A stretch of DNA of 64,000 bases from Clostridia bacterium (GTDB lineage: Bacteria > Bacillota > Clostridia > TANB77 > CAG-508). Position numbers and translations under genes: made by a program. The stretch covers positions 10,017 through 74,016 of the forward strand of contig JAFSBT010000005.1 in the NCBI GenBank assembly GCA_017437145.1, written 5' to 3'. The stretch's first letter is position 1, and every line of letters starts with the position of its first letter. Positions 4,214 through 63,491 of this stretch are shown one piece after another. The notes under the pieces are model-generated. The model was not told the origin of the DNA. It did no database searches and saw only the letters and a program-made list of their open reading frames with translations.

Positions 4214-4429
4214 AAAAAAACTCCTATCTTATAATAAACAATACTATAATAATACTCTAAAAATTGGATATAGTCAAGAAAAAACTATGGATTTAACGTG
4301 TTACAGTTCAATATAAAATTTAAAATTGTAGAGAAGATGTAGGGTAATTTTAATCGCCCGCTTTTGAATAAATTTCTATGAAAAAAAATTTAAAATATTA
4401 GAGAAAAGAACAACAAGAATTACCTGAAA

Positions 4430-4458
4430 TTGACATAAAACCTAAAATGTGTTATTAT
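4430..4458 (+). promoter_or_regulatory. sigma-A type promoter (TTGACA-17-TATTAT) upstream of secreted peptidase gene
   Basis: ttgacataaaacctaaaatgtgttattat. Spacing is 17 nt, with a TG extended -10. Confidence 0.4.
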
Positions 4459-4511
4459 ATAAAGGGGAGTATTTTTTATTTTCCTATACGAACGAAAAAG
4501 GGGGAATTCAT

Positions 4512-5234
4512 ATGAGAACAATATATATAATAAAAATAGTATCCATAATTTTAATATTGAGTACGATTTTTTCATTTGTACCTAATGTAAGTTTAGCTAC
4601 TAATGGGAAAGAGGGCATAAATTTATTTGCAGATATTATTGATAAGTTAATTGTTATAATAAAAGACCTTGCATTAAAATTTTCAGAAATGTTTGCAAAT
4701 CTAAGTATAAAAGATTTAAGTATACAAGAACCAGAAGCAAATACTGCGTTTGCAGATATAGCAAAAGATTGTAAAGCAAAAATTTCTGGATTTAATTATG
4801 GAGATGGATGGGTCGGTGTTCCTTTTTCAGAAGAATCTAATTCAGCAAATAATCCTGCTTCAAGTAACAGACAGTCATCAATAATAGATTGTAGTGGATA
4901 TGTATCATGGGCATTATACAAGTATGGATGTGGCAAAGGAAGCGATTTATATAAAACAATATTTTCTGAACAAAGAGGAACAAAACAAATTCAACTTATA
5001 GTGGAAATGAATCCAACTTTATTTTATAAAGTTGGAACTTTAGGATCTTGCAATGTACAACGAGGTGATATATTATTGAAAAGTGGACATGTAGAAATAT
5101 TTAATAAAAAAAGTGGAAATACTTATTATTGTTATAATGCAGGAGAAAATAAAGATATACATGATGGAACAGGTAGTAAAGGAGACTGTAATGAGTATAC
5201 AAGCTCTTATACAGTATATAGAGTAATTAAATAG
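4512..5234 (+). CDS. secreted NlpC/P60-family (papain-like) cysteine peptidase-like protein
   Basis: Signal peptide. C-terminal domain has Cys (DCSGYVSWALY) and His (GDILLKSGHVEIF) in NlpC/P60 order. RBS aaggggga. Start chosen at MRTIYI. Confidence 0.55.
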   Translation: MRTIYIIKIVSIILILSTIFSFVPNVSLATNGKEGINLFADIIDKLIVIIKDLALKFSEMFANLSIKDLSIQEPEANTAFADIAKDCKAKISGFNYGDGWVGVPFSEESNSANNPASSNRQSSIIDCSGYVSWALYKYGCGKGSDLYKTIFSEQRGTKQIQLIVEMNPTLFYKVGTLGSCNVQRGDILLKSGHVEIFNKKSGNTYYCYNAGENKDIHDGTGSKGDCNEYTSSYTVYRVIK

Positions 5235-5322
5235 ATTTATAAAGTAGAAATCGATAGTAATTTTATTATTAATTTCTACTTTTGCAAAATTTTTTTAAAT
5301 AATTAAAAAAAGAGGTGATTTT

Positions 5323-6654
5323 ATGGAATGTTTTTTTATTAAAAGAAAATTTATAGCTATTTTTCTCTTAATAATATTGGTGACTACTATATGCCAACCG
5401 GTATTTGCAACTGATGTGCGAGTGGAGAGTGACTCTAGAACAAATAAGATATATAGTATATTAGAAATAATAAAAAATATAATAAAAGAAGTTGTTTCTC
5501 AATTAAGAAGCTTGTTATCTGGAGGCGATAAACCACAGGAAACCTCAAGTTTGGAAACAGAATTTTTAAAATTAGAAAATAATAAGAAAAATATGGTATA
5601 TAGTCCATTGTCGATAAAATACGCATTAAGTATGTTAAATGAAGGTGCAAATGGAAATACTAAAAAACAAATAGAAAAAGTTTTAGGAGATAAAAATTTA
5701 GGAAAATACAACAATATTGATAAAATATTATCTTTAGCAAATAGTGTTTATATAAGAGAAGAGTTTAAAGAAGATATAAAAGAAAGTTATAAAAAACAAT
5801 TAGAAGAAAAATACAATGCTGAAGTAAATTACGATGCTTTTAAGAATGCTGATAATATTAATAATTGGATTGAAAATAAAACATTTGGAAGAATAAAAGA
5901 TATGTTATCAGATGATATAGTTCAAGATTCAGAGAATATGATGGTATTGATAAATGCATTGGCATTAGACATGGAATGGGAAGATAATTTTGACGCTGAG
6001 GATACAGGAGGGGCAGAATTTTTCTTGGAAGATGGCTCTAGTATGAATGCAACTACATTAAAAAAGGAAACAAAAAGTGACAGTATGTCTTATTATAAGG
6101 ATGATGAAGTTACTGCTTTAAGAATAAATTTAAAAGAATACGAAAATACACAATTAGAATTTGTTGCAGTAATGCCAAAAGAAAAATTATCTAATTATAT
6201 AGAAGAATTTAATATGGATGATTTAGATAATGTTATAGAAAAATCTAAATTAGCATCTGAAACTAAAGCTGGATTATATGTAACAGTACCAAGATTTTCA
6301 GTTGAATATGATTTGAATTTAAAAGAGGATTTAATAAAATTAGGAATAACAGATGCGTTTAATTTTGAATTGGCAGATTTTTCTAATATGTCAAATAAAA
6401 AAATATTTGTTGGAGATGCATTGCATAAGGCAAATATTGATTTTACAGAAAAAGGTATAAAAGCAGCAGCTGCTACAGTTATATTTATAAAAGACGGAAT
6501 GGCATTGAAAGATGACGAGCCCGAAAGGATTATTATCAATAAACCATTCTTATATGTAATTAGAGATAAAGAAACAGGAGAGATTTGGTTTACAGGAACT
6601 GTTTATGAACCAAATTCTTGGGAAGAAGATAAAGCTAATTATGAATATAGATAA
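5323..6654 (+). CDS. serpin (serine protease inhibitor) with signal peptide
   Basis: Serpin hinge/RCL EKGIKAAAATVIF. C-terminal NKPFLYVIRD...GEIWFTGTV serpin signature. Internal serpin core motifs. Confidence 0.85.
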   Translation: MECFFIKRKFIAIFLLIILVTTICQPVFATDVRVESDSRTNKIYSILEIIKNIIKEVVSQLRSLLSGGDKPQETSSLETEFLKLENNKKNMVYSPLSIKYALSMLNEGANGNTKKQIEKVLGDKNLGKYNNIDKILSLANSVYIREEFKEDIKESYKKQLEEKYNAEVNYDAFKNADNINNWIENKTFGRIKDMLSDDIVQDSENMMVLINALALDMEWEDNFDAEDTGGAEFFLEDGSSMNATTLKKETKSDSMSYYKDDEVTALRINLKEYENTQLEFVAVMPKEKLSNYIEEFNMDDLDNVIEKSKLASETKAGLYVTVPRFSVEYDLNLKEDLIKLGITDAFNFELADFSNMSNKKIFVGDALHKANIDFTEKGIKAAAATVIFIKDGMALKDDEPERIIINKPFLYVIRDKETGEIWFTGTVYEPNSWEEDKANYEYR

Positions 6655-61565: not shown

Positions 61566-61695
61566 AAAAAAACCTCTCTTTTTAATATTTCCACACATTA
61601 TATAATATTTTTTTTATAAAATAAAGTAGAAACTGTTAATTTTTATAATTATTTGATATAATTACGGAAAATAGGAAAATATTAAATTGCAATTT

Positions 61696-61789
61696 GAGGT
61701 GTGATGTGTGAAGTGGGAAGTGCGAATTTTAGGTAAGGCCTACGAAGCATAGCCCTAAAATCACACCTCACACCTCTCACTTCACACCT
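61696..61789. repeat. family-B GTGAGG-armed inverted repeat with GGCCTACGAAGCATAGCC core, in the leuS upstream region
   Basis: gaggtgtgatgtgtgaagtgggaagtgcgaattttaggtaaggcctacgaagcatagccctaaaatcacacctcacacctctcacttcacacc. Confidence 0.6.
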
Positions 61790-61823
61790 ATAAACTACAA
61801 TTTAACAAAGGAGTATAAATTTT

Positions 61824-62567
61824 ATGAAAGCATTAATTACAGGTGCTTCTTCTGGTATAGGAAGAGAAATGGCTAAATATTTAAGTTCAAAAGGAATAGA
61901 TTTAGTCCTAGTTGCAAGAGATGAAGCAAAACTAGAAGATACAAAAAAAGAAATTAAAACAAATGTAGAAATAATTACTATGGATTTAAGTAAAAAAGAA
62001 AATTGTTTAAGCTTATATGAACAAGTCAAGGACATAGATATATTAATAAATAATGCAGGCTTTGGAGTATTTGGAGAATTTACGGAAACAGATTTAGAAA
62101 CAGAGATAAATATGATTGATACAAATATAACAGCACTACATATATTGACAAAACTATATCTACAAGACATGAAAAAGAAAAATTCAGGATATATTTTAAA
62201 TGTTGCATCTATAGCAGCATTTATTCCAGGACCACTCATGGCGGCATACTATTCAACAAAATCGTATGTATTAAATTTGACTAAAGGAATATATGAAGAA
62301 TTAAGACATGAAAAATCAGAAGTAAAAATATCATGTTTGTGTCCAGGGCCAACAAGGACTAATTTTTTACCAACTGCTGGAGTGAAATTTAATACAAAAC
62401 TTGCAACAGCGGAATATGTTGCTAAATATGCAATAGATAAAATGTTTAAAGGTAAATTAGTTGTTATACCAACATTAAAAATAAAGACAGTGATGTTTTT
62501 AAGTAAAATAATTCCGCATAAAATAATTGCAAGATTTACTTATATAATTCAGGAGGGAAGAAGATGA
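61824..62567 (+). CDS. SDR-family (short-chain dehydrogenase/reductase) oxidoreductase
   Basis: TGASSGIG Rossmann motif, YxxxK (YYSTK). C-terminal hydrophobic segment. Confidence 0.8.
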   Translation: MKALITGASSGIGREMAKYLSSKGIDLVLVARDEAKLEDTKKEIKTNVEIITMDLSKKENCLSLYEQVKDIDILINNAGFGVFGEFTETDLETEINMIDTNITALHILTKLYLQDMKKKNSGYILNVASIAAFIPGPLMAAYYSTKSYVLNLTKGIYEELRHEKSEVKISCLCPGPTRTNFLPTAGVKFNTKLATAEYVAKYAIDKMFKGKLVVIPTLKIKTVMFLSKIIPHKIIARFTYIIQEGRR

Positions 62568-63400
62568 AAATAGGATTAGCTTTATCTGGAGGTGGCGTAA
62601 GAGGGGCTGCGCATATTGGTGCAATAAAGGCTCTACAAGAAAATGGAATAGAAATAAAAAGTATTGCGGGCACATCTGCAGGTTCGATAGTTGCGGCACT
62701 GTATGCTTTAGGTTATACAACAAATGAAATGATAAGTTTTTTTAGATATTTTGCAAAAAGTGTAATGGGAATAAGTCCTAAATTTTTGTTTAATAGTATG
62801 AGGGAAGAAAAAAGTATAAAATTAAGAGGATTAGCTTCGAGCTTGAATTTAGAGCAGGCTGTACAAGATGCTGCAAATGTAAAAGGAATAAAGAAGATAA
62901 AGGATTTAAAAATACCAATTATAATACCTGCAACGGATTTAATATCAGATAGAGAAATAGTTTTCACTAATCAAAAACTAAAAGGTGATTATTATATACA
63001 AAATATTGAAATTGGCAAAGCCGTAAGAGCAAGCGCAACATTTCCTGGTATGTATGCTCCATTTGAATATAAAGAGTATCAATTTGTTGATGGTGGCATT
63101 TTTGATAATTTGCCTGTTGCAGAGTTGAAGAAAATTGATGATGTAGATAAAGTTCTTGCAATTAAATTTGATTTGAAAAGTCCAAGAAAACAAAATACAA
63201 TGTATAATATTACGATGCAATCAATAGACTTAATGCAAGAAAGATTAATGCAAGATTCAGTGAAATTAGCAGATAGTTTATTAACAATAAATCTTAGGGA
63301 TGTAAAGGTTTTCAATGTTGATAAAATAGATTTTTGTTATGAACAAGGATATAAACAAACATTGGAAAGAATAGATGAAATTAAGGAACAATTAATGTAG
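62564..63400 (+). CDS. patatin-like phospholipase
   Basis: GGGVRGAAHIG oxyanion motif, GTSAGS nucleophile elbow, DGG motif (VDGGIFDNLP). Confidence 0.8.
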   Translation: MKIGLALSGGGVRGAAHIGAIKALQENGIEIKSIAGTSAGSIVAALYALGYTTNEMISFFRYFAKSVMGISPKFLFNSMREEKSIKLRGLASSLNLEQAVQDAANVKGIKKIKDLKIPIIIPATDLISDREIVFTNQKLKGDYYIQNIEIGKAVRASATFPGMYAPFEYKEYQFVDGGIFDNLPVAELKKIDDVDKVLAIKFDLKSPRKQNTMYNITMQSIDLMQERLMQDSVKLADSLLTINLRDVKVFNVDKIDFCYEQGYKQTLERIDEIKEQLM

Positions 63401-63491
63401 GGGTGGAATGCGCTTCGCTTAGTTAATAGTGAATAATCAAAATTTGCTTTGCAAATTTTGATGTAGGGGCGAACTCATTGGCGACCTATGC
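63397..63491. repeat. two REP-like hairpins (gtaggggtggaatgcgcttcgc ; gtaggggcgaactcattggcgacc), the first overlapping the patatin stop codon
   Basis: The second is preceded by the recurrent caaaatttgctttgcaaattttgat motif also seen at 15570 and 26090. Confidence 0.55.

Follow-up and report, generated by a model that had tools for sequence, protein, structure and literature searches.

What are the short, GC-rich palindromes that recur between the genes of an AT-rich member of the Clostridia, and how did they come to be there? The question is raised by a 64-kb stretch of the metagenome-assembled genome (MAG) of a Clostridia bacterium (GenBank assembly GCA_017437145.1, contig JAFSBT010000005.1, positions 10,017 to 74,016; the whole stretch is called the window below and positions are those within it), where the heptanucleotide GTAGGGG repeatedly heads a hairpin placed outside the genes. 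We are confident, although short of certainty, that these elements are GTAG-type repetitive extragenic palindromes (REPs), with inverted doublets resembling REPINs (REP doublets forming hairpins), of the type that goes with group 4 of the tyrosine transposases associated with REPs (RAYTs), i.e., TnpA-Y1 subclass 2.4. A recent arrival of the family in this Clostridia lineage and a turnover that still goes on are part of the same reading and share its (joint) confidence, and the mechanism by which the elements would move is taken by analogy. The class of element is a known one; what is new is the extension of its hosts to an AT-rich gut Clostridia lineage, not a new kind of element.

GTAG-headed hairpins downstream of genes

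Exact matches to GTAGGGG number 20 on the two strands of the window, as opposed to 1.34 expected and a maximum of 5 in 100 shuffles, and 19 of them fall in non-coding DNA, which makes up 14.4% of the window (85.6% is coding). The remaining match, at 38430, lies within a gene and lacks a hairpin, and we consider it a chance match. With the degenerate members at 4339, 6805, ~15512 and 26010 and the GTGG-headed copy at 26138, all found by a scan for GC-rich islands, the window holds about 20 elements (Table 1), at a density of about 0.3 per kb, and all real copies are extragenic.

The units share one design: GTAG, GGG, a variable arm of 5-6 nt, a loop of 3-5 nt, a second arm complementary to the first, CCC and, at the end, G or CTAC. 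That is, the foot of the stem consists of three consecutive G-C pairs (GGG/CCC), and in 17 copies GTAG or GTGG stands directly 5' of this foot; the base before the head is T in 16 of 17 cases and a longer target motif was not seen. A perfect stem of at least 7 bp (7-9 bp) begins right after 13 of the 21 GT[AG]GGGG heads, compared with a 99th percentile of 7.5 at 5000 random positions of the window. Covariation was assessed on an alignment of 18 hand-picked, well-formed copies (11 from the window and 7 from other Clostridia loci), in which 98.6% of the stem cells are paired vs. 33-49% in slid controls, the former value being an upper bound because well-formed copies were chosen. Compensatory changes on both sides were observed at five of the eight stem pairs, and none of 500 shuffles reached the observed covariation.

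The units also occur in combination, including double-foot GTAG…CTAC forms (16501 and 51805), inverted doublets that fold as one hairpin (47520 and 50935 in the window, and 13117-13165 and 19537-19585 in L209, a locus of the sister genome described below) and three tandem pairs (12485/12549, 15601/15665 and 63397/63463). Computed folding energies range from -12 to -25 kcal/mol for single units and from -34 to -36 kcal/mol for doublets. Scans of the window against Rfam (gathering thresholds) and for tRNA/tmRNA genes gave no match, and a literature search with the element sequence strings returned primers only.

The original prediction, which was made from the letters of the window, had described at least 20 intergenic GTAGGGG elements with variable stems and compensatory changes, tandem or nested pairs, and two copies overlapping stop codons. 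All of these claims hold up, the positions it gave being correct to within 1-6 nt. Neither base composition, as the counts above indicate for the window, nor assembly accounts for the family: an assembly artefact is excluded because two samples yielded assemblies without a difference over 42 kb, and because the 92%-identical sister genome from the Joint Genome Institute (JGI) has orthologous REPs. Three further loci (L001-L003) are 100% identical to the window and, thus, uninformative on within-strain polymorphism.

Most copies are located 2-130 nt downstream of the stop codons of plus-strand genes, in the sense orientation. Of the single copies, about 14 show a plus-strand head and none a minus-strand one; heads on the minus strand are confined to the second arm of doublets or double-foot forms. 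Base composition varies between 24 and 33% G+C in 2-kb segments, with a net positive GC skew of the plus strand over the whole window; for most genes the plus strand is the sense strand, and GC skew marks it as the lagging-strand template. This orientation bias fits both targeting of single-stranded DNA at the replication fork and a role at the transcript level.

Such placement raises the alternative that the hairpins evolved in place as terminators or mRNA stabilizers of the host and have no mobile origin. Not only do most copies lie just past stop codons in the sense orientation, but relatives of the host (64-75% PcrA identity) have ordinary hairpin-plus-T-run terminators after PcrA and CoatF, that is, where the window has REPs, and one copy (26142, i.e., 26138-26161) scores terminator-like. 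However, it is only after this copy that a T-run follows, the others being followed by mixed sequence, and a terminator reading of the elements is rejected for this scarcity of T-runs. Further, termination needs no conserved GTAG head, and a host origin in place would have to account for identical stems at unrelated loci of the window, for the insertions and deletions of whole blocks relative to the sister genome and for the occurrence of the same sequence across phyla, tied to RAYT genes. Hence, this alternative is largely refuted and we consider it very improbable. A function at 3' ends is a separate issue from origin: the elements, if transcribed, would form stable 3' hairpins without a U-tract, as their position and folding energies suggest, and because REPs occupy the sites of the relatives' ordinary terminators, a role as mRNA 3'-end barrier or partial terminator is likely.

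REPs inside and beside RAYT genes

The anatomy described above corresponds closely to that of the REPs of TnpA-Y1 subclass 2.4 (Quentin et al. 2018), which is the RAYT group 4 of Bertels et al. (2017) and is plentiful among Cyanobacteria and Bacteroidetes and scattered over many other phyla. The published features are a GT[AG]G head, a foot of three G-C pairs, double-foot GTAG…CTAC forms and REPs inside the tnpA-REP gene itself, all of which, together with a short loop, were also found here, the in-gene REPs in other genomes, and the published examples (Table S1 of Quentin et al. 2018 includes GTAGGGGCGAACGGCCGTTCGCCCCTAC and GTAGGGGCGACCGGCCGGTCGCCCCTAC) differ from copies of the window only in the loop or inner stem. 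Differences include the host, a Clostridia MAG of 27-28% GC as opposed to the Cyanobacteria, Bacteroidetes, Chlorobia and Caldilineae stressed in the papers, the mostly CCCG ends and 3-nt loops of the Clostridia copies, and the fact that the cognate gene has not been seen for this genome. Di Nocera et al. (2013) reported GTAG REPs in four phyla or superphyla and did not mention Firmicutes.

A pattern scan for GTAGGGGCGAAC-N2-5-GTTCGCCC, with one genome per species, recovered at least 120 genome loci (L004-L123) from many phyla; among the matches listed are Cyanobacteria, Chloroflexota, Desulfobacterota, Oscillospiraceae/Ruminococcus, Deinococcota, Armatimonadota, Bacteroidota, Omnitrophota and others. 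Clustering of the open reading frames (ORFs) of these 120 loci revealed no common neighbour except a RAYT cluster in four loci, and tblastn with E. coli YafM as query identified the same small RAYT family in L023, L045, L058 and L107, which represent four phyla, with a REP in or beside the gene. The encoded proteins show both an HUH motif (MPNHIH) and a Y motif (Y..NP), score above the Pfam threshold for PF01797 (Y1_Tnp) and contain the REP in frame (e.g., as VGANGRSPL). In a profile search the family extended to at least 8000 relatives, many of them titled "REP element-mobilizing transposase RayT" (JGI and NCBI naming), and by their in-frame REPs and three-G-C foot the REP-carrying proteins appear to match the published subclass 2.4. 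Separately, a MAG assigned to the Asgard archaea (Promethearchaeota; L104, JAIWHJ010000013.1) carries two exact GTAGGGGCGAACCTTGTGTTCGCCC REPs on a contig of very low coverage (0.33x), which could be due to mis-binning or to true transfer between domains.

RAYTs are also known from Clostridia: a Ruminococcus RAYT has 1858 relatives and an AT-rich RAYT 7780, several with NCBI names from Ruminococcus flavefaciens, Oscillospiraceae and Clostridia. On a 31%-GC Clostridiales contig (L125), RAYT P0191 lies between ackA and recG and has two in-frame REPs of opposite orientation (VGADIIRP and GRIISAPT), and the 20 kb around it hold eight strict intergenic REPs, mostly co-oriented as in the window. On a 30%-GC contig (L124), a RAYT with in-frame REPs carries GTAGGGGCGACCATTGGTCGCCCG, which is the stem of copy 58021 of the window. 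Overall, a RAYT flanked by or containing a REP was seen in seven other genomes (L023, L045, L058, L107, L124, L125 and L211). As regards the genes themselves, P0064, P0191, P0198, P0263 and about 230 relatives have two in-frame REPs at fixed positions (in L125, 10106 and 10299), one of which precedes the HUH motif in the Clostridia RAYTs (as VGANIVRP, VGATIGRP, VGADIIRP or VGASIARP), and the amino acids co-vary in a way that preserves the DNA hairpin. In addition, L211 has a second Y1_Tnp gene (7682-8482, 266 aa) 1.5 kb from RAYT P0263 that is missing in the otherwise collinear L212, which suggests a polymorphic insertion of a Y1 transposase beside a RAYT.

The original prediction had regarded a dense REP family in a Firmicute as notable. 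The density in a host of 27-28% GC stands; the novelty was overstated because the literature has group 4/2.4 dispersed among many phyla and the databases already contain RayT homologues in the thousands, many of them named from Ruminococcus or Clostridia.

It could be argued that the elements are instead miniature derivatives of IS200/IS605 insertion sequences (palindrome-associated elements), moved by a classical TnpA and not by a RAYT. Both systems combine Y1 HUH enzymes with subterminal hairpins, and the second Y1_Tnp gene of L211 is found near a RAYT. Yet the elements are single symmetric GTAG-headed hairpins or doublets and do not have a left end distinct from a right end, neither tnpA nor tnpB lies nearby, and the proteins with in-frame REPs belong to the RayT family of JGI and NCBI, with features that appear to match subclass 2.4. 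Therefore, we consider a classical TnpA a most unlikely source and favor RAYT-associated REPs.

If so, an HUH/Y1 enzyme, encoded once and at another place in the genome, would, by analogy, bind the folded top strand as single-stranded DNA, use GTAG for recognition and for the choice of the cleavage site, and cut and rejoin DNA, thereby copying or moving REPs or doublets; its substrate, read on one strand, would comprise the GTAG guide tetranucleotide, the hairpin with GGG/CCC foot and, often, a 3' CCCG or CTAC. The experimentally studied enzymes are the TnpA-REP of E. coli, Stenotrophomonas and Marinomonas, and in groups 2 and 3 (Messing 2012, Ton-Hoang 2012, Corneloup 2021) the RAYT binds the folded single strand and needs GTAG, GTAG helps to select the dinucleotide at which cleavage takes place, and strand joining is possible. 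The REPs and bacterial interspersed mosaic elements (BIMEs) of E. coli, which go with a group 2 RAYT (TnpA-REP), likewise have a GTAG head and a palindrome, are intergenic and often 3' of genes, and form mosaic clusters with other conserved motifs, of which the ~250-nt composite units described below are reminiscent; however, the REPs of E. coli are longer, with a bulge that is required, whereas the stems of the window are short, perfect and nearly uniform in orientation. Similarly, the Pseudomonas REPINs (RAYT group 3) are inverted doublets that form one long hairpin, with singletons as apparent remnants, whereas the spacers of the window are very short (3-13 nt) and most copies are singletons.

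Probable invasion, and turnover relative to the closest genomes

The window encodes CoatF, MecA, DprA, a sortase, a BofC-like protein, MreBCD and MinC, and identical proteins are deposited at NCBI (MBQ69921xx); based on this gene content and the NCBI name of the identical proteins, the host is a spore-forming member of the Clostridia. For comparison, 80 PcrA-anchored metagenome loci were fetched. Relatives with PcrA 64-75% identical to that of the window have 26-37% G+C (most 26-31%) and keep the order PcrA-hyp61-CoatF-M23-MecA-RadC-MreB-MreC-MreD-PBP2-MinC. Strict REPs number 14 in the 64-kb window vs. a single, doubtful one in 432 kb of syntenic DNA of these relatives.

The sister genome (L209/L210), with about 92% nucleotide identity, has some REPs in common with the window and differs from it at five sites. 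These are the htrA terminator flank, where L209 has a block of ~105 nt with two REPs and the window no insert; the MecA-RadC spacer, with a REPIN in L209 (19537-19585) and a different hairpin element in the window; the PcrA-hyp61 spacer, where the extra block of the window with REPs 15601 and 15665 is absent from L209; the orthologous REP at 12549, whose stem in L209 is different and still paired; and the site downstream of CoatF. At the latter, the double-foot REP of the window (16501) corresponds in L209 to the inverted doublet GTAGGGGCAGGTCTTGACCTG[CCCAGGGTCGGTCAAGACCGA]CCCCTAC; the flanks are perfectly conserved and the window is missing exactly the bracketed 21 nt. This directly shows that the double-foot REP at 16501 arose from an inverted doublet through deletion of its central part, as Quentin et al. 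(2018) had proposed for double-foot REPs.

Several points weigh against the reading of these elements as recently arrived REPs of a group 4/2.4 RAYT that are still turning over. No RAYT gene was found in the 64-kb window by tblastn, and that of this MAG was not located among the ~350 homologues inspected for composition, contig statistics and accession numbers, none of the NCBI accessions being close to MBQ6992189. The literature biochemistry covers groups 2 and 3, with no group 4/2.4 enzyme tested there, so that the mechanism is borrowed from the former groups. With most genes of the window on the leading strand, replication and transcription cannot be told apart by the orientation bias. Finally, several copies are decayed (4339, 6805, 15512, 63397 and 63463) and, hence, part of the family may be fossil. 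As for the RAYT candidates picked by AT-rich amino-acid composition (P0198, P0191 and P0263), they belong to other organisms.

Taken further, the last of these points becomes the alternative that the whole family is fossil, that is, spread by a RAYT since lost, with copies that now decay or serve as RNA/DNA structural elements. The degenerate state of about a third of the copies and the lack of a RAYT in the window or among the checked candidates are in line with it. However, many copies are perfect, the five structural differences from a 92%-identical sister include gains or losses of whole units, and the search for the gene covered 64 kb, probably a few percent of the genome. We therefore regard an entirely fossil family as unlikely, and favor RAYT-type REPs with ongoing turnover, based on the conserved head, the covarying hairpin, the group 4/2.4 anatomy, the extragenic and co-oriented placement, the unit-wise gain or loss relative to the sister genome and the linkage to RAYT genes in other genomes. 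The assignment to RAYT-type REPs had also been made in the original prediction.

The same prediction had placed REPs at the junctions of rearrangements among the mre and min genes, and REPs were indeed found at both the mreC and mreD junctions and after minC. In relatives with 64-70% PcrA identity, mreB-mreC-mreD-pbp2-minC are contiguous, whereas in the window about 21.5 kb (26007-47675) part mreC from mreD, with genes that include ispG, ispH, a sortase, a methyltransferase and a large gene with an adenosine-deaminase domain, and neither minD nor minE follows minC (50923-51949). The closest REP-free relative, L129 (74% PcrA identity), has mreC followed by other genes and gcpE, that is, the same mreC break; a causal role of REPs in the mreC/mreD split is therefore not supported.

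Two other differences in gene content were noted. At 5323-8002 the window has a serpin gene and a Big_2/peptidase C39-like gene, between which the decayed REPs at 6755-6832 sit, and L209 (3985-4620) has two short ORFs instead. Between CoatF and the M23 peptidase, both the window (16691-19455) and L209 have a block of LonC-like, Mg-chelatase (ComM-like), DprA and UPF0102 genes that is missing at that position in the 64-75% relatives; the double-foot REP 16501 is at its left edge.

Composite units and heptamer-arm hairpins

Some REPs are embedded in a composite unit of ~250 nt, present in three copies and made of an AT hairpin (CAAAATTTGC-TAT-GCAAATTTTG), at least one REP, a tail resembling GTGCTNCGAAGG, an AT-rich hairpin of 60 nt and a further, small hairpin. 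The AT-rich perfect hairpins of ~60 nt (GCTAAAATATTAATTTTTGA…TCAAAAATTAATTATTTTAGC) lie about 45 nt downstream of a REP and have folding energies of -19 to -25 kcal/mol (z-scores -5.7 to -8); the one at 15718 is conserved in L209.

The window also contains six intergenic hairpins, 110-130 nt long, in which each arm consists of 3-5 heptamers in tandem and is complementary to the other; the heptamer varies between copies (GAGGTGT or TTTGGAA type, with a TAGTGAA-type array next to the hairpin at 26010), and the cores resemble TAGG(G)…(C)CCTA with a CTACGAAG motif. As RNA they fold to as low as -65 kcal/mol, four of the six have z-scores between -6 and -10 (lowest -9.9), and none matched Rfam. L209 has the same heptamer element with one heptamer more or fewer per arm, and the other heptamer type at the LMWPc-PcrA site; no such hairpins were found in the more distant relatives or in L125.

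Among the loci compared, period-7 arrays number 76 in 821 kb of the listed REP-bearing loci (L004-L123) vs. 7 in 1073 kb of REP-free loci (L129-L208), a comparison of rates that is confounded by phylogeny and locus selection; neighbouring periods (5, 6 and 8-11) yielded only 2-12 arrays in the 120 listed REP loci and are not enriched. Arrays abut REPs on the head side in 9 of 295 cases vs. 1 of 269 on the tail side, a modest asymmetry (p = 0.02), and some are in register with GTAGGGG, the head being the last unit of the array. Clustering of arrays next to REPs, a 4-fold excess over random positions, vanishes against a random intergenic control.

The short tandemly repeated repetitive (STRR) sequences of cyanobacteria are intergenic tandem repeats of heptamers. 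MacGregor (2015) described heptamer repeats (TAACTGA), for which no mechanism is known, from Beggiatoaceae, Cyanobacteria and Bacteroidetes; as a side observation, these resemble the arrays of the window in lying between genes, often close upstream of start codons, with 3-9 heptamers per array, and are unlike them in that the window arrays form complementary arms of long hairpins and vary in heptamer from copy to copy. It is intriguing to hypothesize that REPs and heptamer-arm hairpins constitute one composite repeat system and, in a wider sense, that intergenic heptamer arrays (STRR/TAACTGA type) may grow from the head of group 4/2.4 GTAG elements, e.g., through RAYT cleavage and rejoining or slippage at a bound hairpin. 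The hairpin cores look like decayed double-foot REPs (TAGGG…CCCTA and a CTTCGNAGG motif also found in REP tails), this lineage acquired REPs and arrays jointly, and the array counts, the head-side asymmetry and the register given above are in line with the idea; against this, L125 has REPs without arrays, and the proximity of arrays to REPs is no better than that of the intergenic control. A link between heptanucleotide repeats and RAYTs was found in no paper of the library searched. We consider the hypothesis rather doubtful and the heptamer association a lead, not a finding.

Table 1. REP copies and associated repeats, with positions in the window (., no single strand assigned)
Feature	Position	Strand	Remarks
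Degenerate REP GTAGGGTAATTTTAATCGCCCG	4339..4360	+	Inner stem identical to copy 33635
Degenerate double-foot REP GTTAGGGGG…CCCCTAC	6755..6785	.	Intact head on minus strand
Decayed REP-like hairpin TATAGGGTCAGACG…GCTGCCCA	6805..6832	+	
REP, GTCGNCG/CGGCGAC stem subfamily	12485..12511	+	17 nt past Rce1-like stop codon; ortholog L209:9236
REP, stem GCGGGC/GTCCGC	12549..12574	+	Preceded by motif CAAATTTTGAT; different stem at orthologous L209 site
Degenerate REP-like hairpin GCAGGGGCGAC…GTTTCGCCTAG	15512..15538	+	Between heptamer arrays
REP with one mismatch	15601..15625	+	In block of ~135-200 nt missing from L209
REP, then tail GTGCTCCGAAGG	15665..15691	+	Tail resembles doublet spacer; not in L209
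Slightly decayed REP	15887..15908	+	Ortholog L209:12503
Double-foot REP GTAGGGGCAGGTCTTGACCTGCCCCTAC	16501..16528	.	-24.9 kcal/mol; L209 inverted doublet minus central 21 nt
Variant double-foot hairpin ATAGGGTCGAAC…GTTCGACCCTAG	26010..26040	.	2 nt past mreC stop; TAGTGAA heptamer array abuts
REP, GTGG head, stem GCGAAC/GTTCGC	26138..26161	+	Only copy with T-run after
REP	33635..33657	+	TAG of GTAG (33636-33638) is stop codon of endonuclease-like ORF
REP, GTCNNCG/CGGCGAC subfamily	46425..46451	+	After SpoU methylase gene
Inverted REP doublet, REPIN-like	47520..47578	.	Heads outside; just upstream of mreD; -34.1 kcal/mol, z-score -6.3
Inverted REP doublet	50935..50982	.	After minC; doublet type as L209:13117-13165; -35.9 kcal/mol
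Double-foot REP GTAGGGGCGAACTTCGTTCGCCCCTAC	51805..51831	.	
REP, stem GCGACC/GGTCGT	58021..58044	+	Stem also embedded in RAYT genes P0198 and P0263
Degenerate REP	63397..63420	+	TAG of GTAG (63398-63400) is stop codon of patatin ORF
Degenerate REP	63463..63486	+	Within one copy of the ~250-nt composite unit
Composite units	15557-15850, 57985-58200, 63420-63650		
AT-rich perfect hairpins, ~60 nt	15718-15803, 58067-58152, 63514-63599		
Heptamer-arm hairpins, GAGGTGT type	10309-10435, 31107-31230, 61681-61803		
Heptamer-arm hairpins, TTTGGAA type	13062-13181, 23169-23290, 29272-29396		
Partial or single heptamer arrays	15452-15480, 15539-15574, 15930-15975, 26038-26065		Arrays at 15539 and 26038 adjoin REP-like hairpins

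In conclusion, our results document a GTAG-type REP family, at the high density of about 0.3 elements per kb, in a gut lineage of the Clostridia that forms spores and is very AT-rich; to our knowledge, REP biology has been studied almost only in Proteobacteria. The interest of the findings lies mainly in the comparative evidence for invasion and turnover and in the heptamer lead. The 92%-identical sister genome, together with REP-free relatives, represents a clean natural experiment on how such a family invades and turns over, and the locus downstream of CoatF provides a direct case of the deletion that converts a doublet into a double-foot REP, previously only a published conjecture. With REPs at the terminator sites of its relatives, the lineage is well suited to asking whether REPs take over 3'-end functions. 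Finally, the finding of a near-identical REP in many phyla is at odds with the way REPs are usually described, namely as species-specific.

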